Below, one piece after another: positions 5,942 through 21,014 of a DNA stretch of 28,538 bases; the first letter of the stretch is position 1; each line of letters starts with the position of its first letter. Where the stretch lies: sequence record KM389306.1; one strand, 5' to 3'. The DNA comes from Escherichia phage Phi06_2974 B. The notes beneath the pieces are model-generated. The model was given only the letters and a program-made list of their open reading frames with translations, did not search any database and was not told where the DNA came from. A program made the position numbers and the translations under genes.

Positions 5942-7368
5942 CAGCTATTCCCCTTCAGGGTTAACAGGTATTCCGAGGTGATCTCGGTCTCAAACGTCAG
6001 TCGCTCCAGCGGCGGTGGCGGCGTGTATTTGTAGCTCAGCAACAGATGACCGGCGGCCAGCTCCATCTCTTCATTACGGGCCGGATCAAACCAGCAACTG
6101 AAGCCCAGCAGTGCACCGTCGCCAATCAGCTTGCGACCGTAGGCGTTGACCGACTCCGTCAGCGCATCAATCAGTGCCTGGGTAATCGGCATGTCGATGT
6201 ACTGCTGGCTGAAATAACGCAGGGACTCGTTGATAACATCACCGGTGCGGCGAACGTTCTCAAAGTTGCGCATATGGGTGACCGTTGGCCATGCTGCCGT
6301 CCGGTTGCCCCACAGACGCAGGCCGCTGCCGTAGCTGCTGAAGACCGTAGTGATGCCCTGTTCGTTGAGCAGGTTCACCTCGCTCTGCGGGTCATCAATC
6401 ATTGCCGACAGCTGGCGCTCCACGCCGGTGATACCCAGAATCTCCTGGTTGGAGGACGACCACCAGTAGCCCTTGTCCAGGTCGACCTTGGCACGCAGAC
6501 CTGCAGCACGCTGGCTCAGCGGCTCCAGCCGTTCGCTGTTGGTGGCCGCGTCGTACACCTTGACGTGCGGATAGCACAGACGGACGCGGTCGGAGCTGGT
6601 ATTGAAGTTAATGGTGCCTTCCGGGCCACGCCCCGCCAGAGCCTGCGCAAAAGTGGTACCAATCGGCGCGTCGATGTAGGTCACCGCGCCCAGCTTCTCA
6701 GCCATGGCGATAAGCTCAACCGAGACGCTGTTCTGGGTGCAGAATACCGGGGCAATCAGAATTTTGGCGAAGTAGCCAAACAGGTTGAAGCTGTCGTTAA
6801 GCAACTTCATGCCGGTACGGTTGCCTGCCGCGTTAACGGTACCGATGATATCAGCCGGGGTGACTTTGGTCGGATCGGCATAGTTATAGCTGGCCTTCAC
6901 CGTTGCATCTGCAGCAATGCTTTTACCAAGATTAGTAATCACCCCGGTCTGCGCATCAAGCGAGTAGTCCTGACCTTCCACATAAGGCTGACCGTCGCTG
7001 TCCGGTTTCAGTACCAGCTGCGCGATCACCGGATTAGCCAGCTGTGCCTTGCCCGTCGCCTTGTCGAATGTTACGTCTTCATCGGCCACAGCGGTTTTAT
7101 GCACAGCCGGATCAAGCACGTTAATGACCAGAACGGTGCCTGCCCCATGGTCGTAGATCGCATCCAGTGCCTGCGGAATGGTAAAGCCAGTGAGCTGGCT
7201 GCCAAACGCCGCTGCATCTTTCTCAGACAGGCACTGCACCAGCGTATTGACGTCTCCCATTGGGGCGGTACCAATCAGGCCAATGACGGCGGATTTCACC
7301 GTTTTAACCGGGCGGGCACCGTTTTCCACCTCAATGGTTTCGACGCCATGCAGATAGTTAGCTGACAT
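5941..7368 (-). CDS. tail sheath protein
   Basis: ORF track 475 aa; ATG at 7368 with SD GGAGG; size and order (sheath-tube-chaperone-tape measure). Confidence 0.8.
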   Translation of the reverse strand: MSANYLHGVETIEVENGARPVKTVKSAVIGLIGTAPMGDVNTLVQCLSEKDAAAFGSQLTGFTIPQALDAIYDHGAGTVLVINVLDPAVHKTAVADEDVTFDKATGKAQLANPVIAQLVLKPDSDGQPYVEGQDYSLDAQTGVITNLGKSIAADATVKASYNYADPTKVTPADIIGTVNAAGNRTGMKLLNDSFNLFGYFAKILIAPVFCTQNSVSVELIAMAEKLGAVTYIDAPIGTTFAQALAGRGPEGTINFNTSSDRVRLCYPHVKVYDAATNSERLEPLSQRAAGLRAKVDLDKGYWWSSSNQEILGITGVERQLSAMIDDPQSEVNLLNEQGITTVFSSYGSGLRLWGNRTAAWPTVTHMRNFENVRRTGDVINESLRYFSQQYIDMPITQALIDALTESVNAYGRKLIGDGALLGFSCWFDPARNEEMELAAGHLLLSYKYTPPPPLERLTFETEITSEYLLTLKGNS

Positions 7369-7609
7369 GGGAGTCCTCCGTTTTCACATCGCTGTCGCCG
7401 CCGTTCCTGCGCTTTGGTGACTGCACAGCCGGTATGCTGGCGGGTTTAGTCTCTTCAGATACCGGCGTCAGATGCTTCAGCGCCACCAGTACCTTCACAT
7501 AGTCATGCTCCTCGGGCAGGGAAACATTCTTCCCCGGCCAGAGCAGGATTTCGGTTCCGTCCGACAGCGTGACGCCGCTGGCCGGGCCGGAATAGCGGTA
7601 TTCTTTCAT
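7358..7609 (-). CDS. hypothetical small structural protein (Mu gp38 position)
   Basis: ORF track 7358..7612 (GTG); ATG at 7609 overlaps upstream stop (TGATG); 83 aa. Confidence 0.4.
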   Translation of the reverse strand: MKEYRYSGPASGVTLSDGTEILLWPGKNVSLPEEHDYVKVLVALKHLTPVSEETKPASIPAVQSPKRRNGGDSDVKTEDSHVS

Positions 7610-8073
7610 CACTCGCTTTCCTCATAGTTCACTTCGGTTAACAGCGGGCCGGACGGTAAATCGCTGTCTTCGATAAAGACGCTTTCGGTTGCGAAGTCGA
7701 GAGCGTACTGCCACAGCCCCTTGGCCTCACCGATAAACACCTCACGGGTCAGCCAGATACGGCGGCGGCAGTTCGGCGGGGTGTAGCCGCCGAGTATGCG
7801 GCGGACTGCATCCAGAACGTCAATCGCACCTCTTTTACCGTTGAGCTGGCGGAAGACCACCGTGACGCAGAGCTGGATAGTCTGAGGCTGGATCACCGCA
7901 CCAATATCATCGGGTTTGTCGAAGCGTGAACCGGCATAGCTCAGCAGCAACGCCCCGACAGGATGATTCAGACGGTATTCGGACGGCTTTTCCGGGAAGT
8001 ACTCCACCTGCAGCTGGGGCAGCTTCTCGCGCAACCGGGCCAGCACAGCATCGAGGACGGGCAGAACGTTCAT
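7609..8073 (-). CDS. Mu gp37-like head-tail joining/structural protein
   Basis: ORF track 154 aa; ATG with SD GGAGA; position between capsid and sheath genes. Confidence 0.45.
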   Translation of the reverse strand: MNVLPVLDAVLARLREKLPQLQVEYFPEKPSEYRLNHPVGALLLSYAGSRFDKPDDIGAVIQPQTIQLCVTVVFRQLNGKRGAIDVLDAVRRILGGYTPPNCRRRIWLTREVFIGEAKGLWQYALDFATESVFIEDSDLPSGPLLTEVNYEESE

Positions 8074-8519
8074 CAGTATTTCTCCAGTAAGCCGTCGCGC
8101 CCGCCAAAGGTGGGGCGACGTGCCCGCGCCCGGATTTCACCGGACTCAGGTACGTCTTTTTGAGTGGACTGCAGCCCCAGCGTCAGCTTCCCGTCGCGGA
8201 TAGCCTCAAGCTGACGCCGGGCCTCTTTGTTGTCGTCTTTGACGGTGTCAGGCAGATCACCTTCAGGACGACGGACATACAGGCGGTAACGCACCAGCGT
8301 GATGGCAATATCCCGCAGAACGGTAGGCACTTCTGCCAGCGGCAGGGTATAGCGGCCACGAAGGTGCGCATCAATCAACTCCCCGGCGTAGCGAACACAG
8401 CTGTCCACAACCGTCACATTCACCGTGGCAGGGGTGTCGAAATCCACGACCTCGTTAGTGAGCTGAATCAGCGTTGACTCAGGCACTTGTTCCTGTAAAT
8501 CCGCCAGGGTGCAGTACAT
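8073..8519 (-). CDS. Mu gp36-like protein
   Basis: ORF track 8073..8648 trimmed to ATG at 8519 (SD GGGGTG), immediately after stop of 8521..8877 gene; 148 aa. Confidence 0.45.
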   Translation of the reverse strand: MYCTLADLQEQVPESTLIQLTNEVVDFDTPATVNVTVVDSCVRYAGELIDAHLRGRYTLPLAEVPTVLRDIAITLVRYRLYVRRPEGDLPDTVKDDNKEARRQLEAIRDGKLTLGLQSTQKDVPESGEIRARARRPTFGGRDGLLEKY

Positions 8520-8520
8520 G

Positions 8521-8877
8521 TCACACCCCGCGCAGGATGCGGATAACATCGCCTTTGGCCAGTGCTTCATCCAGCGCAATCCCGGCTGAAATACCTGCCG
8601 GGGTGTCGCCTGATGCTGCTGTCTGGGGAACGGCGCAGGCATTTGCATCCGACTGAACGTTCAGCCCCCTGGCAATCGCGGCACCGGCCTCGACGGCAAC
8701 AATGCCCAGTACGTTGACCGGGGTTACATCACCGGCTGCGGCATCCACCTCTGCCACGCCGAGCGCGACGGCTCCGGCCTGACAGGGGGCGTTATCGGCA
8801 CCGACAAAGCGCTGTTGCGTCAGCGCCGCACTGGCCGTCACGGTAGTGGTCAGAATGACCTGCTGTGTTGTACCCAT
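8521..8877 (-). CDS. hypothetical Ala/Gly-rich head-associated protein
   Basis: ORF track 118 aa; ATG at 8877 with SD AAGGAG; directly downstream of major capsid gene. Confidence 0.45.
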   Translation of the reverse strand: MGTTQQVILTTTVTASAALTQQRFVGADNAPCQAGAVALGVAEVDAAAGDVTPVNVLGIVAVEAGAAIARGLNVQSDANACAVPQTAASGDTPAGISAGIALDEALAKGDVIRILRGV

Positions 8878-16302: not shown

Positions 16303-16627
16303 GGTGACCTCCTGTATGACGATACTGCTGTACCACTTCCAGTTTGTTGTAGAGTGCGTCCAGCTTGGCCTCGATGACCGTCTGCCCACGGATGTAATCC
16401 TCGCGGCGGACGTAGTTCAGCGGTAAATCCGCCTTAAACCGCATAAATTCTTTTTCCAGCTCGCCCCAGTTGGAAGCGGACTGTTGCAGCGACTGCTCAA
16501 GAGAGGCGAACCGCGCCGCCTGACGCTCCTCCGCTTTACTGAACAGCCACTTGGCCATACCGCCGACAAAGCTCATGAAGGTGATGAGAAAGCCCACCAC
16601 CGTCCAGAATTCAACCTGCAACGTCAT
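16295..16627 (-). CDS. membrane protein with N-terminal TMD and coiled-coil tail (lysis-associated; possibly antiholin/releasin-like)
   Basis: ORF track 16295..16687 trimmed to ATG 16627 (ATGA overlap with i-spanin stop, SD AAGGA); hydrophobic segment FWTVVGFLITFMSFVGG. Confidence 0.4.
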   Translation of the reverse strand: MTLQVEFWTVVGFLITFMSFVGGMAKWLFSKAEERQAARFASLEQSLQQSASNWGELEKEFMRFKADLPLNYVRREDYIRGQTVIEAKLDALYNKLEVVQQYRHTGGHHG

Positions 16628-17277
16628 TTCTGTAATCCTTCCCGTTCGTCCAGCAGCCCGTTTATCTGGCTGCGCCAGATGCGGCACTGCTTCGCGTTGT
16701 CGATGATGTTGGCGAGGACATCACGCTGGGAGACGCCTGAGTTGCGTAGCCAGGCGTCAGCGGCTTCAGGTTGCCCGGACGCTGCGCCAGTGCCGGTGCC
16801 AGCGGCGGCAGTTGCGTCTGAATGACCGGTGTCGACGGATGCGTTGTCATATCCGAGCGCGGCGTTGTACTGGCGCACGAAACCGCGAGTAAACACGCAC
16901 TCAATGGGATGGCTCTTACCTTTTTCATCAATCCAGCGCTGTGTGACATCGTTAATTTGCCCCTGTAGTTGTTTGTTCTGGCTCTCCAGTTGAGCAATCT
17001 GCTCAAGGTAACTGGCTTCAGCCTGCTGCCCGGCGGCTACCTGTTCCTGATACCGTTTCGCCCAGGCCCGCAACGCAGCGTTCTCAAGCGTTGCCTGCTC
17101 CGTTTTGTACGTGTCGAATGCTGACTGCAACTCACTGACCGCCTTATCGCCGTCGCGCGTGGCGTTTTCATGCCCGCTTTTGTAGCCCAGGTAATAAAGC
17201 CCAATCAGAAAAGCATTTATGACCACCGCCAGCAGCAGACTGCGCCACGGCAGATTTTTTAGCAGGTTAGTCCACAC
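16624..17277 (-). CDS. i-spanin (Rz-like inner-membrane spanin subunit)
   Basis: ORF track 16624..17379; proposed GTG start at 17277 with SD GGGGAGG 8 nt upstream, just after endolysin stop; N-terminal TMD then long coiled-coil periplasmic domain. Confidence 0.55.
   Translation of the reverse strand: MWTNLLKNLPWRSLLLAVVINAFLIGLYYLGYKSGHENATRDGDKAVSELQSAFDTYKTEQATLENAALRAWAKRYQEQVAAGQQAEASYLEQIAQLESQNKQLQGQINDVTQRWIDEKGKSHPIECVFTRGFVRQYNAALGYDNASVDTGHSDATAAAGTGTGAASGQPEAADAWLRNSGVSQRDVLANIIDNAKQCRIWRSQINGLLDEREGLQK
16662..16928 (-). CDS. o-spanin (Rz1-like outer-membrane lipoprotein), fully embedded in i-spanin gene in +1 frame
   Basis: ORF track 16662..17006 trimmed to ATG 16928; MKKVRAIPLSACLLAVSC signal/lipobox-like N-terminus followed by proline-rich region; embedded architecture as in lambda Rz/Rz1. 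Confidence 0.45.
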   Translation of the reverse strand: MKKVRAIPLSACLLAVSCASTTPRSDMTTHPSTPVIQTQLPPLAPALAQRPGNLKPLTPGYATQASPSVMSSPTSSTTRSSAASGAAR

Positions 17278-18004
17278 AGCTGCCGCCTCCCCAGGTGAGA
17301 TAACGCGGGGCCAGTTCGTGCAGGATGCGCTGCGGATAATGACGGTTCTCCCGCCAGTTGGCAGTGCTGCGTCCGGCATTCACCGTGGCGACATGACCAA
17401 ACCAGCGGGTGCTGTCCAGCCCCTGCTGCGAGGCCAGCCGTTTGTCCCGCTGTACCCAGCCCAGACCACCGTTATAGCCTGACAGCGTCATGGCCATACG
17501 CTCGCAGTCATTGACGGCGCTGACGCGTTGCCACAGCCAGCGGTCATAGCTGACCAGCGCCCGGATGGCCCAAGACGGATTAAACGGTTCACGGCTGTTA
17601 AGCCCCGGCATCAGCTGACTTATCCAGTCAGCGGTGGTGGGCATAAACTGCGCCAGTCCCTGAGCGCCAACCGGCGAGACCGCATCAGGTCGCCAGCCGC
17701 TTTCCTGATGCAGCTGCGCGGCGAAGTCGGCCACCGGCGCAGACATTCCCCATTCAAGCCGGGCATTACGGATCACATCGTCGCGATACTGCAGCGCGGT
17801 CTGCGGTGGCTGGGCAGCGCGGGCCTGACTGAAGAAGCCGCCACACCAGAGCAGCCAGGCTACCGTTACTGAACCAAAGAGCTGCCACCAGAAACTGTGC
17901 TTACCCGTTCGGGCCTGCCCGTGGCGGGCCAGTTCGATGCCCAGCCCCAGCAGTACCAGCACGGCCCAGACAACCTGAGGCCAGTACATATAGAGGGTCA
18001 TCAT
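17267..18004 (-). CDS. endolysin, lytic transglycosylase (SLT) type with hydrophobic N-terminal signal-anchor (SAR-like) region
   Basis: ORF track 245 aa; motifs QESGW...GLAQFMP...SGYNGG consistent with SLT family; residues ~5-60 contain two hydrophobic stretches; ATG overlaps holin stop (TAATG). Confidence 0.65.
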   Translation of the reverse strand: MMTLYMYWPQVVWAVLVLLGLGIELARHGQARTGKHSFWWQLFGSVTVAWLLWCGGFFSQARAAQPPQTALQYRDDVIRNARLEWGMSAPVADFAAQLHQESGWRPDAVSPVGAQGLAQFMPTTADWISQLMPGLNSREPFNPSWAIRALVSYDRWLWQRVSAVNDCERMAMTLSGYNGGLGWVQRDKRLASQQGLDSTRWFGHVATVNAGRSTANWRENRHYPQRILHELAPRYLTWGGGSCVD

Positions 18005-18354
18005 TAAAGCCCCATCGCTACGGCCAGACAGACTGCAGCAACAATCAGCGCACGGCGGATTAGCGCAGCAGAAAAGACCAGGTGAAGGCCAGTCTGGACA
18101 GGGAAGCGACCATCAGCCATCAGCCTGTCATCATGCTTCAGGTACTGACCGGGACGGGCTTTGGGGAAAAGCGAACGGTCAAGCCAGTAGCCCAATACTG
18201 CCGCCAGCGTGATGAGTGATAGCTTGTAGACAACCACCGGCAGCTGCTGGGGCGATACCAGACCGATGGTGCCGAGCAGCAGCACAGCGGTCAGCAGCCA
18301 GCCGCTGAGACGTGGCTTTTTAACAGGGGGAATGAATTTTTTCAGGTTTTTCAT
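18004..18354 (-). CDS. putative holin (three predicted TMDs)
   Basis: ORF track 18004..18387 (GTG) trimmed to ATG 18354 with SD AAGGAG at 6 nt; 116 aa with three hydrophobic segments; first gene of lysis cassette. Confidence 0.5.
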   Translation of the reverse strand: MKNLKKFIPPVKKPRLSGWLLTAVLLLGTIGLVSPQQLPVVVYKLSLITLAAVLGYWLDRSLFPKARPGQYLKHDDRLMADGRFPVQTGLHLVFSAALIRRALIVAAVCLAVAMGL

Positions 18355-18466
18355 GAGCGTCTCCTTGTGTAGTGGAGACAGCATCACAAATGGTCGGGGA
18401 AAGGGATTTTAAACAGCGTTAATAGTGAGGATGCAGACGTGAACCGCATGATGGCTTTGAAAGAAC

Positions 18467-18498
18467 GACCAGCCCGGTGCGGTAACACCAGGCTGGTC
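18467..18498. promoter_or_regulatory. stem-loop (GACCAGCC...GGCTGGTC, ~12 bp stem) in the region between late operon and methyltransferase gene
   Basis: Inverted repeat read directly; no U-tract on the plus strand, short UUCUUUC on the minus strand. Confidence 0.3.
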
Positions 18499-18601
18499 AT
18501 CAACCCACAGGTATGCACTGTGAGCCGACCAGGGTTCAGTCAGTCTCGCGAGACCAGACTAGCCTGCCATATTTTCATTGATTGCAAAAGGCTTACGGAT
18601 A

Positions 18602-19372
18602 ATGAAAGAACAATCTTTACCCATCGTCCCATGGATTGGCGGTAAACGTCGTCTGGCGAAGCATATTTTACCATTGTTTCCGGCCCATACCTGCTATGTG
18701 GAGCCGTTCTGCGGGGCAGCTGCGCTCTATTTCCTAAAGACTCCCAGCAAGACCGAAGTCATTAACGATATCAACGGGGAACTGGTGAACCTCTATCGGG
18801 TGGTCAAGCATCATCTGGAAGAATTTATTCGCCAGTTCAAATGGGCGCTGGTCAGCCGTCAGATTTACAAATGGTTGCAGGATACGCCGGAAGAAACGCT
18901 CACCGACATTCAGCGGGCGGCCCGGTTCTACTACCTGCAGAAACAGGCATTTGGCGGCAAGGTCGCCGATCACACATTCGGTACCTCTACAACCAGTGCG
19001 CCGCGCTTCAATTTGCTGCGTATTGAGGAAGAACTGTCGATGGCACACCTGCGCCTGTCGAGAACGCTGATAGAGCATCTGGACTGGCACCAGTGCATAG
19101 AGCGATATGATCGCCCGCATACGCTGTTCTACTGTGACCCACCGTACTGGGGAACGGAAGGCTATGGTGTGGAGTTCGGGCTGGAAAACTATGATCACAT
19201 GGCAGATTTAGCGCGAAGGATCAAAGGGAAGATGATTATATCAGTGAACGATATCCCGGAAATGCGGCAGGTATTCAACGGTCTGAACATGCAGTCGGTT
19301 GATATCAGCTACAACCTTAAGGTAACAGGCAAACCCAGCCCGAAGAAAGAGCTGGTAATTTGTAATTTTTGA
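18602..19372 (+). CDS. DNA N6-adenine methyltransferase (Dam-like, orphan)
   Basis: ORF track 18578..19372 (TTG) trimmed to ATG 18602; motifs WIGGKRR, EPFCGAAAL (AdoMet binding) and DPPY (catalytic); no adjacent restriction endonuclease gene. Confidence 0.8.
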   Translation: MKEQSLPIVPWIGGKRRLAKHILPLFPAHTCYVEPFCGAAALYFLKTPSKTEVINDINGELVNLYRVVKHHLEEFIRQFKWALVSRQIYKWLQDTPEETLTDIQRAARFYYLQKQAFGGKVADHTFGTSTTSAPRFNLLRIEEELSMAHLRLSRTLIEHLDWHQCIERYDRPHTLFYCDPPYWGTEGYGVEFGLENYDHMADLARRIKGKMIISVNDIPEMRQVFNGLNMQSVDISYNLKVTGKPSPKKELVICNF

Positions 19373-19389
19373 AAGAGGTAGTTAAAGGT

Positions 19390-19412
19390 GGTGGTGCATC
19401 TGCAGCACCACC
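19390..19412. terminator. putative terminator hairpin between convergent methyltransferase and lipoprotein genes
   Basis: GGTGGTGC (7-nt loop) GCACCACC perfect 8-bp stem, 18 nt after MTase stop and 8 nt after lipoprotein stop; flanking runs only moderately U-rich. Confidence 0.45.
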
Positions 19413-19419
19413 TAAACAT

Positions 19420-19953
19420 TTAATCCTGCCTTGGACAAGTCCAATAATCATTATCTGGCTCTGGTGAATAAGCTTTCAAACAACCTGCTCGCGGGGTCTT
19501 ACCATCATCTGTCATAGGAACTTTTTCCTTATCAAGTTTCACGGTCAGGTCTCCACCAGGAACATCCGTTTTATCGAAAAAAACAGCCTGACATGCTGAT
19601 TTAGATATTTTCACTTCGTGGGCATTATTTGATATGAACAAATAACAATTATGACCAGAGGCTATGTAGTCACTTGGAATATTATTTTCGTCTTTAATAT
19701 GAAACTGCACCGTTGTCACCGGGCGTTCGCTATCCTCGGATACTTCGACTTTTTCAAAACTGTCCGCGTACTTATCCAGGCCGGGGAGTTGTTGGCGAAT
19801 AAACGGTAATTCGCGATTTACAACCGGATTATCTGTTTCAACGCTAAAAACCGCGTGCTCCTTAGCTGTGGTGGACGTATCAGCAGGATCGGTATTATCT
19901 CCACACCCAGATAAAACAAATATCAACGGTAAAAATAATTTGCGCATAGTCAT
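19420..19953 (-). CDS. lipoprotein of unknown function (moron downstream of repressor)
   Basis: ORF track 177 aa; N-terminus MTMRKLFLPLIFVLSGC = signal peptide + LSGC lipobox; visibly lower G+C than flanking phage genes. Confidence 0.6.
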   Translation of the reverse strand: MTMRKLFLPLIFVLSGCGDNTDPADTSTTAKEHAVFSVETDNPVVNRELPFIRQQLPGLDKYADSFEKVEVSEDSERPVTTVQFHIKDENNIPSDYIASGHNCYLFISNNAHEVKISKSACQAVFFDKTDVPGGDLTVKLDKEKVPMTDDGKTPRAGCLKAYSPEPDNDYWTCPRQD

Positions 19954-19988
19954 GTCCTTATACCTCTAATGTTCTTAATAGGAACAGA

Positions 19989-20399
19989 TTAACCCGTATT
20001 TTTTAATCTTTCGAACGCTGCGGACAGCTCCTTAAGCTGTTTTTCCATATCAATCATTCGCTGTTTTTCCTCAGCGCCTCGCAGCAACTCTTTTCGCACC
20101 TCTGGCTCCAGTTGGTTGAGCAGCTCCAATAACTTCAGATCAGACTGGTTGAAATGCTGCTCCTGATTAGCTGGCTGTGCTTTCTCTACCCCAACAGCTT
20201 CCCCTTTACCAGTAAGTAGCCAATCTATTGATATGTTCAAATGGGTGCTTAGCGCAACAAGAGCCTCTGCATTAGGTTCTCTCTCTCCACGCAGATAGTT
20301 TTGAAGTGAGCGATATGGAATTTTTGACAAGTCTGACAATGCCTTAATTGTCAGACCCTTAGCATCCATCGCTTCGCGCAATCTCTCTTTTATACTCAT
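19989..20399 (-). CDS. prophage repressor, XRE-family HTH with coiled-coil C-terminus
   Basis: ORF track 19989..20495 (TTG) trimmed to ATG 20399; MSIKERLREAMDAKGLTIKALSDLSKIPYRSLQNYLRG... typical Cro/CI-type HTH; divergent from early operon. Confidence 0.65.
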   Translation of the reverse strand: MSIKERLREAMDAKGLTIKALSDLSKIPYRSLQNYLRGEREPNAEALVALSTHLNISIDWLLTGKGEAVGVEKAQPANQEQHFNQSDLKLLELLNQLEPEVRKELLRGAEEKQRMIDMEKQLKELSAAFERLKNTG

Positions 20400-20487
20400 T
20401 TGAACATATCTCAATTTGACATACCCGTTTGGGTGCGTACAATAGACCCAATAGAGTACATCATAACCCAACAGGAACACGGTGCAT
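20400..20487. promoter_or_regulatory. divergent early promoter/operator region
   Basis: Plus strand: -35 TTGACA (20416..20421), 16-bp spacer, -10 TACAAT (20438..20443); direct repeats CAATAGA at 20440..20446 and 20450..20456 overlap the -10. Confidence 0.45.
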
Positions 20488-20712
20488 ATGAACAAACAAC
20501 AAGTTCGGGCACGGCTGGTTGAAAGAGGCAGTAGCTTGCGCCAGTTCGCGCTTAACGCGGGCTATGAGCCACGAACAGTCACCCAGGCTGTCAGCCGCTG
20601 GGCAGGCAAAAGCGAACTTCCACGCGGTCGTTTGACTTATCGGATTTTGCGAGACCTTTCGGTCGCAATAGGCAAAGAAGTTACCCCCGGCATCCTCAAG
20701 GAGGCGTCATGA
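20488..20712 (+). CDS. Ner/Cro-like small DNA-binding protein (first early gene)
   Basis: ORF track 20482..20712 (GTG) with ATG at 20488; 74 aa; segment LRQFALNAGYEPRTVTQAV resembles Ner-family HTH. Confidence 0.5.
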   Translation: MNKQQVRARLVERGSSLRQFALNAGYEPRTVTQAVSRWAGKSELPRGRLTYRILRDLSVAIGKEVTPGILKEAS

Positions 20713-21014
20713 GTAAACCAAATACATCAAGCTCAGGTACCCGTATTTTGCGTGTCCTTAAGGCTTTACGCGGTCACGCTCTGAACGGTGTTTCTAACGG
20801 CGAGCTGGCGTCAGCTCTGGGCGAGTCCCCGGCGAATATCAATCGGGCGCTCAATACCCTTATCGAAGAAGGACTGGCCCTGAAACTGGATAACGGGCGT
20901 TTTGCCCCAGGAGTCCAGCTCTTACAAATCGCCATGGCGCACAGTACCGAAATGGCGCGGGCGCAGGATCGTATCAATGAAATTAACCAGCGTGTTATGG
21001 CTGGTAGTCGCTAA
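20709..21014 (+). CDS. winged-helix DNA-binding protein (IclR/MarR-like N-terminal domain)
   Basis: ORF track 101 aa; ATGA overlap with previous gene, SD AAGGAGG; ILRVLKAL...NGELASALGESPANINRALNTLIEEGLA looks like a wHTH. Confidence 0.45.
   Translation: MSKPNTSSSGTRILRVLKALRGHALNGVSNGELASALGESPANINRALNTLIEEGLALKLDNGRFAPGVQLLQIAMAHSTEMARAQDRINEINQRVMAGSR

Follow-up and report, generated by a model that had tools for sequence, protein, structure and literature searches.

A lipoprotein gene behind the repressor of a BcepMu-like phage encodes a new domain family and is a tentative candidate for superinfection exclusion

What does a lipoprotein do when its gene lies directly behind the immunity repressor of a transposable phage? 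The question is raised by a 28,538-nucleotide (nt) stretch of Escherichia phage Phi06_2974 B (KM389306.1), hereafter the window, in which a prolipoprotein gene on the minus strand (19420..19953) follows the repressor gene on the same strand. The initial annotation had proposed a lipoprotein of 177 amino acids (aa) with an LSGC lipobox, co-oriented with the repressor, and the open reading frame (ORF), the lipobox and the HTH_3 match of the repressor bear this out. We find that the protein belongs to a new, unnamed domain family, referred to here by its PGLDKY signature, for which there is no Pfam model and no detected fold relative. The position itself, that of an accessory envelope gene in a repressor operon, is of a known kind; what is new is the domain family. 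We tentatively favor the reading that the product is an envelope lipoprotein made while the phage is resident and acting in superinfection exclusion, although this assignment, drawn from sequence comparison, falls somewhat short of probable.

The ORF is a real coding sequence, since its homologues extend to ∼25% identity, the ratio of nonsynonymous to synonymous substitution rates (dN/dS) is 0.12-0.17 in divergent pairs, and the mature domain is modelled with a predicted local distance difference test score (pLDDT) above 90. Counted from the first ATG the product has 177 aa, and 175 aa from the likely start at 19947. This second ATG, at Met3, is probably the true start, because a Shine-Dalgarno-like AAGGA (19955-19959), inside the spacer between the repressor and lipoprotein genes, sits 7 nt before it and because many homologues begin with MRK. 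The N-terminus, MTMRKLFLPLIFVLSGC followed by GDN, is encoded at 19903..19953 (minus strand) and combines a basic n-region, a hydrophobic core and a lipobox (MTMRK-LFLPLIFV-LSGC, in which residues 14-17 are L-S-G-C). Cys17, the predicted lipidation site, is invariant in 22 homologues and is followed by Gly at +2 and Asp at +3. Under the "+2 rule" of E. coli, Gly at +2 with Asp at +3 would direct the protein to the outer membrane, although Gly at +2 is ambiguous.

Behind this cysteine, the mature protein is made of a disordered tether of ∼18 aa, an alpha+beta PGLDKY domain (∼residues 43-140) and a C-terminal tail with a Cys-loop (C157...C173). The AlphaFold2 model (mean pLDDT 82, above 90 across the mature domain) has two helices packed on an antiparallel sheet, preceded by the disordered tether. 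A Foldseek search of this model gave no meaningful match in the PDB (best E 0.38) or in BFVD (best E 0.08), and a profile search of PDB sequences returned nothing for the lipoprotein.

The sole profile match of the lipoprotein was phrog_10002, where its residues 27-134 align with positions 215-321 of 328 (E 5e-14). The aligned part is the domain that also occurs in fused forms of 318-329 aa. The profile models the long form anchored by a transmembrane (TM) helix, whereas the window encodes the lipoprotein-only form. A word-indexed search collected 37 clusters, the named ones all from Enterobacterales and annotated as "hypothetical", and an exhaustive profile search of 1.84 billion representative proteins collected 187 clusters at E <=1e-3. 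Members share a core of ∼100 aa (residues ∼43-140) with near-invariant P57, G58, Y62, P93, G100, C103, K118 and C121, and the window lipoprotein, which carries the family signature including P57-G58-L-D/N-K-Y62, is one of them. A second pair of cysteines, at positions 56 and 125, is found in about 80% of members. The window allele has L56 and F125 instead, and those of its closer relatives that have C56 also have C125. That both residues are lost together is compatible with a disulfide pair and with an oxidising environment outside the cytoplasm. A zinc site composed of H101, C103, C121 and D127 was also considered and rejected, as H101 is only 70% conserved and the cysteines behave as disulfide pairs, C56 and C125 being lost together.

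The way in which the domain is anchored varies across the family: a lipobox, a signal peptide, an N-terminal TM helix, a Zn-ribbon with a TM helix, or a cytoplasmic Flk_N-like domain with a TM helix. The Pro-rich tail with its Cys-loop (PPTPDxKPPRxGC...WxCP) is common to the window lipoprotein and many of the long forms. In one member, P0048, the domain is followed on its C-terminal side by two Ltp repeats (PF07553, E 5.5e-28); the P0048 gene (L013, 2585-3532) adjoins a divergent DUF4258 and HTH_3 pair on a 4.2-kb metagenome contig.

The window represents a transposable phage of the BcepMu-like (Bcepmuvirus) type. The minus strand encodes the portal, the terminase subunits, an SLT endolysin and a holin, plus large ORFs to the left of these. 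After the lysis block come the Dam methylase gene (plus strand), the lipoprotein and repressor genes (both minus), and a divergent plus-strand early operon with a ner-like gene, an IclR-type helix-turn-helix (HTH) gene, a DUF3102 gene, an rve transposase gene and an AAA+ ATPase gene at the position of Mu B. The window transposase shares 68% identity with its BcepMu counterpart and 57% with the one from Pseudomonas phage B3. Across 18458-20800, identity to Klebsiella phage KP12 is 98.5%; the lipoprotein gene of KP12 is KP12_283, annotated as a "hypothetical protein".

The repressor gene (19989..20399, minus strand) encodes a Cro/C1-type protein of 136 aa (HTH_3 3e-12, Phage_CI_repr 2e-6) with a coiled-coil-like C-terminal segment; a longer, TTG-started ORF of 168 aa was set aside, the conserved length in relatives being 136 aa. 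Between the repressor stop (19989) and the first lipoprotein ATG (19953) lie 35 nt (19954..19988, minus strand), or 41 nt if counted to the ATG at 19947, so that the lipoprotein gene does start close behind the repressor, although not at the 36 bp first reported. Scans for the sigma-70 consensus and for terminators found no promoter-like site in or near this 35-nt spacer and no terminator-like site in it, although a consensus promoter scan may miss weak or non-sigma-70 promoters. Spacers of 27-35 nt are also found in homologous repressor-lipoprotein loci. Beyond the lipoprotein gene, a hairpin at 19386-19413 (11 pairs with one mismatch, centroid energy -18.8 kcal/mol, z = -2.9) starts 6 nt past the stop codon and is common to the convergent gene for a D12-class N6-adenine DNA methyltransferase (Dam; 18602..19372, plus strand), which forms the 3' border of the repressor-lipoprotein unit. 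We regard this hairpin as a candidate bidirectional terminator.

The initial annotation had described the gene as a moron of visibly low G+C content. Its G+C content (41.8%) is indeed well below that of the whole window (56%), but this is not peculiar to it: the repressor gene is also low (44.8%), and the low-G+C block is therefore the whole immunity module rather than the lipoprotein gene alone. The term moron fits the atypical composition and the absence of the gene from phage PhiKM; it does not fit a gene that shows no promoter of its own, matches the repressor gene in G+C content and encodes a domain long resident in this slot.

A precedent for expression from this position comes from Pseudomonas phage Fc02, which has the same genome layout as the window and a transposase 57% identical to it. 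RNA sequencing (RNA-seq) of an Fc02 lysogen placed the repc-e4 mRNA within the sole region transcribed before induction, e4 being an accessory gene immediately downstream of repc with no assigned function (PMC9936078). The product of e4 (gp20) is likewise a lipoprotein, with the lipobox SVAGC (MDFKVLLGAVMLVSLSVAGC...), and occupies the same slot. We rejected it as a homologue of the window lipoprotein: the hhalign probability is 2.8%, with only the signal peptide aligned. The e4 product is related to a C-terminal segment of B3 ORF22. B3 ORF22, BcepMu gp18 and B3 ORF20 were rejected as homologues as well. The arrangement of a repressor followed by a lipoprotein thus recurs with unrelated lipoproteins. 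From the operon-like geometry of the locus and the RNA-seq of the analogous Fc02 gene, we infer that the lipoprotein gene would form the distal part of the repressor transcription unit and be made together with the repressor in the lysogen.

The linkage to a regulator extends throughout the family. Every homologue with a classifiable context lies in a transposable (Mu-type) phage and in one slot, which in the window and its relatives is that of the last gene of the regulator's transcription unit, ahead of the lysis cassette. Close and mid-distance homologues from Morganella, Yersinia, Serratia, E. fergusonii and Xenorhabdus are found directly behind the repressor gene, or with one membrane-protein gene in between, and precede the methylase or holin gene. 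In IMG/VR, the family gene lies one or two genes downstream of a co-oriented repressor in all 39 loci that have upstream DNA (of 40), and these repressors are of at least 14 types (of 14 distinct ones, 10 match HTH_3, 9 HTH_19, 9 HTH_31 and 4 Phage_CI_repr). The linkage is kept in every BcepMu-layout locus examined, and remote members (25-39% identity) retain the arrangement, both in a Pseudomonas chlororaphis prophage (P0047) and in metagenomic sequences (P0052, P0055, P0057 and P0087). The lipoprotein gene is nevertheless dispensable: PhiKM, whose repressor differs, lacks it, and PhiKM, BcepMu and B3 hold other genes in the slot. Membrane and cargo genes found there in relatives include BcepMu gp18 and gp19, B3 ORF20 and ORF22, and an NA37 gene with a gene for a 401-aa protein.

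The lipoprotein also diverges and moves in a manner of its own, its gene being the one that differs most when otherwise similar phages are compared. It is only 43-52% identical in phages whose other compared genes are mostly 75-100% identical to those of the window, the exception being the repressor of L007 and L008, which is of a different type and falls outside this range. Its dN is 0.40-0.45, as compared with 0.02-0.11 for its neighbours. In the more distant backbones L010 and L011, the lipoprotein is 66% identical, like its neighbours. Lipoproteins 86% identical to that of the window sit behind repressors with a different DNA-binding domain; deeply diverged alleles therefore reassort among backbones and immunity types, and such shuffling onto similar backbones would be anticipated in a protein that encounters other phages. 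In the closest pairs (L017, L018, L044 and L045), the synonymous rate dS is 0.02-0.11 in the repressor-lipoprotein module (19420-20399), much less than in the genes for DUF3102, the IclR-type HTH protein, the transposase and the methylase (0.17-0.32); the ner-like gene is also low (0.05-0.07). This difference between module and flanks points to a recent exchange of the immunity module among backbones. Strong positive selection is unsupported, dN/dS values of 0.4-0.8 being confined to 97%-identical pairs with few changes.

The case for superinfection exclusion is built on the operon geometry, the linkage to regulators across immunity types, the tethered extracytoplasmic protein, the shuffled alleles, the fusion to Ltp repeats, the Zn-ribbon and TM anchors, the co-transcribed lipoprotein of Fc02 and the other membrane or cargo genes that relatives carry in the slot. 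In the mechanism that we have in mind, Sec export, lipidation of Cys17 and disulfide formation would tether the compact alpha+beta domain to the membrane through its flexible linker of ∼18 residues, and the tethered domain would interfere with a superinfecting phage at the envelope. We infer that it would more plausibly block the entry of the genome through the periplasm and inner membrane than mask an outer-membrane receptor, because paralogues are TM-anchored in the inner membrane and because the phages that carry the family, having different hosts, presumably use different receptors, which makes a single receptor target unlikely.

Several observations weigh against an exclusion role. The lipoprotein has no match in Pfam or NCBIfam, the defence models of PADLOC-DB v2 contribute 0 families at E <0.1, and it has no fold relative among known exclusion proteins. 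In the literature on exclusion by BcepMu-like and B3-like phages we found no study of the lipoprotein and no phenotype for a homologue, and in Fc02 and Ps56 exclusion has so far been mapped to olg1 and gene 10, not to the gene behind the repressor. The Ltp fusion concerns 1 cluster of 187. Selection on the lipoprotein is purifying (dN/dS 0.12-0.17 in divergent pairs), if weaker than on core genes. The hairpin that the initial annotation took for the terminator of the gene is present but not canonical; the lipoprotein strand shows no U-run behind it, and the terminator scan did not pick it up. Finally, P0110 (E 2e-10) and P0150 (E 2e-7), the most distant of the members examined, come from Mu-layout phages, which have a MuA-type transposase, GemA and Mor. 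In these loci, the family gene overlaps a Mor/C-family activator gene or sits 13 nt from it, ∼200 nt of non-coding DNA precede the lysis genes, and no repressor is nearby. Expression in these phages would therefore be lytic (early or middle), with no protection of a lysogen.

The Mu-layout loci are also an argument for a function in lytic growth, either as a pre-late envelope factor directed, like Llp of T5, against adsorption or injection by progeny or competitors, or in tuning envelope breakdown and the timing of lysis. Such a role would suit the family-wide position as the last gene before the lysis cassette, and in loci without a methylase the holin and endolysin genes follow downstream of it in the same orientation. 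We nonetheless consider it unlikely. The family gene is separated from its upstream regulator by gaps of 8-35 nt or overlaps it, whereas at least ∼130-445 nt or a convergent gene always stand between it and the lysis genes; coupled to the regulator and split from the lysis cassette, it is therefore not part of a late lysis operon. The lysis systems next to it vary (SLT with Holin_2-3, GH108 with GTA_holin, Phage_lysis) and the family does not co-vary with them, which speaks against its being dedicated to one particular lysis protein. Moreover, the window already encodes a holin (Holin_2-3; 18004..18387, minus strand), which is the first gene of the lysis and late block and the other border of the accessory slot, as well as an SLT endolysin and a nested spanin-like ORF pair.

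That pair lies just downstream of the SLT endolysin gene, where a 251-aa ORF (16624-17379, minus strand) encloses, in another frame, an ORF of 114 aa (16662-17006, minus strand) whose product has a lipobox-like LLAVSC and a tail rich in proline. The pair resembles an o-spanin embedded in an i-spanin, as in Rz/Rz1 of BcepMu. The identity of the window lipoprotein itself as a spanin or other lysis component was rejected, given the convergent gene that splits it off from the lysis cassette, its folded alpha+beta mature domain and the existence of this separate pair.

The distribution of the gene among hosts bears on another alternative, namely that the lipoprotein alters the host itself, conferring serum resistance, adhesion, envelope stress tolerance or changed permeability in the manner of lambda Bor. 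Of 5,426 complete E. coli genomes, 20 carry the complete repressor-lipoprotein module, at varied chromosomal sites and labelled "hypothetical protein", and in strains AW1.7 and CFSAN051542 it is identical to that of the window; a genome scan with the narrow lipoprotein alignment (A1) yielded only 7 species representatives. Prophages of E. coli, Klebsiella, Pantoea (P. stewartii) and Apirhabdus have near-identical (97%) copies, and Salmonella has more divergent relatives; together with the place of the gene in a low-G+C lysogeny module, this spread would suit lysogenic conversion. We judge conversion quite unlikely. The members with a classifiable context are all in transposable phages and in one slot, across Enterobacterales, Pseudomonas and metagenomic lineages, and a slot that stays fixed whatever the host genus argues for a function centred on the phage rather than on the niche of the host. 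The protein also has no similarity to Bor or to other known conversion proteins.

Comparison with characterised systems places the tentative exclusion role in context. Ltp of the Streptococcus thermophilus phage TP-J34 (PF07553) is likewise a lipoprotein from a prophage lysogeny module that lies outside the cytoplasmic membrane, where it blocks DNA injection by binding the tape measure protein. The window lipoprotein has neither an Ltp repeat recognised by Pfam nor similarity to Ltp in fold, its host is Gram-negative, and the repeats are shared only by P0048. Llp of T5 and Cor of phi80, N15 and HK022 are also small phage lipoproteins acting at the envelope, and they exclude by blocking FhuA; Llp is described as a lipoprotein that binds this receptor. 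Lytic infection is the time at which Llp is produced, and also the one expected for the family members of Mu-layout phages. At more than double the size of Llp and Cor, the window protein matches them neither in sequence nor in fold. The closest parallels in position, which the initial annotation had already drawn, are lambda rexAB and P22 sieB, located downstream of the immunity repressor and co-oriented with it. These genes are expressed in the lysogen from that position and encode cytoplasmic or inner-membrane abortive-infection proteins; the window lipoprotein has no homology to them and is predicted to be exported and lipidated.

Other proteins found directly behind the repressor suggest a different kind of function. 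BcepMu gp18, B3 ORF20 and Flk_N-like membrane proteins occupy this place, and in some phages the PGLDKY domain is fused to such a protein or encoded by the gene that comes after it. In the fusions P0055, P0087 and P0115 and in a 324-aa protein of L019, a cytoplasmic Flk_N-like domain, a TM helix and the PGLDKY domain follow each other in a single product encoded directly after the repressor; elsewhere the Flk_N-like protein and the domain are separate, adjacent genes. In related loci, the last ∼25 aa of the repressor and the first ∼25 aa of the next membrane protein carry the same G/N/Q/V-rich motif, which co-varies between loci (mean local alignment score of 43 for cognate and 26 for non-cognate pairs). 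The loci concerned are L051/L019, L014, L029, L061, L062, L065, L069, L024, L078, L030 (BcepMu gp17/gp18) and L031 (B3 ORF18/ORF20). Examples of a repressor tail with the start of its membrane protein are FTVSGDNNRVAGRDY with FNVGGNNNRVAGRDY, QTFHGAVGQAVAGNITN with QDFHGEVGQAAGGDINN, and QIFNGDISGQFAGNQIIN with QEFNGTAQGQFSSRDIIN. As far as sequence can tell, the shared motif resembles short motifs that signal or oligomerise in pairs, or else a segment that mimics the repressor tail. We know of no earlier description of such a pairing between a repressor tail and a membrane protein.

Taken together, the fusions, the adjacent genes and the co-varying motif could mean that a transmembrane relay to the repressor receives its periplasmic input through the PGLDKY domain, and the window lipoprotein would be a reduced or accessory form of that system. 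This we find improbable, the relay being drawn from sequence patterns only. A more specific version, which seems to us very improbable, would make the domain the sensing end of an envelope-to-repressor relay that controls immunity or induction through templated or competitive contact of the tail-anchored Flk_N-like protein with the repressor, the window lipoprotein being a trimmed form that acts on the host or on a component of the incoming phage. BcepMu gp18 and B3 ORF20 have no PGLDKY domain, and as the window lacks both a membrane protein of this kind and the motif at the repressor tail, a relay of that form is excluded here.

The two types of protein can also occur side by side. In Serratia sp. 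Ag1 (L019, 2376-4531; identical in L051 and L052), two tandem domain paralogues lie behind one repressor, the 324-aa protein with its Flk_N-like domain and TM helix being followed by a 175-aa lipoprotein that is 75% identical to that of the window.

Repressor-linked prophage genes are a main source of phage-phage exclusion, and very few are known for Gram-negative transposable phages, which are common in clinical Enterobacterales and Pseudomonas. If the lipoprotein does block genome entry, it would represent a new structural class of exclusion protein and offer a handle on how the DNA of Mu-type phages crosses the periplasm. An exclusion activity would also be relevant to the prediction of host range in phage therapy, the module being carried by E. 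coli, Klebsiella, Pantoea and other Enterobacterales.

The accessory slot and its surroundings hold further cargo. In some relatives the unit is extended by two genes on the same strand (L006, 6732-8947; L010 and L011, about 6550-8836; L053-L055), which encode a nucleoid-associated protein of the NA37 family (Pfam 2.9e-81) and a protein of ∼401 aa that has no match in Pfam or PADLOC. The second gene behind the repressor of BcepMu, gp19 (L030, 4664-5200), has a weak PADLOC match to a "2TM effector" (E 6.7e-5), a hint that the slot can carry membrane effectors of the defence type. A second variable cargo site, beside the lipoprotein slot, is the interval between holin and methylase: KP12 holds ∼970 bp of extra DNA there (window 18388-18601, as compared with 2960-4144 in L001), which encodes KP12_281, a protein of 188 aa on the minus strand with a DUF2441 match (E 1e-6).

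On the other side of the repressor gene, and divergent from it, a sigma-70-like promoter (20416..20443, plus strand; TTGACA-16-TACAAT, 11/12 matches) faces the early operon that starts with the ner-like gene. Its -10 hexamer is overlapped by an inverted repeat, TTGGGT-N11-ACCCAA (20429-20451), which, with a second TTGGGT at about 20466-20471, provides candidate operators for the repressor.

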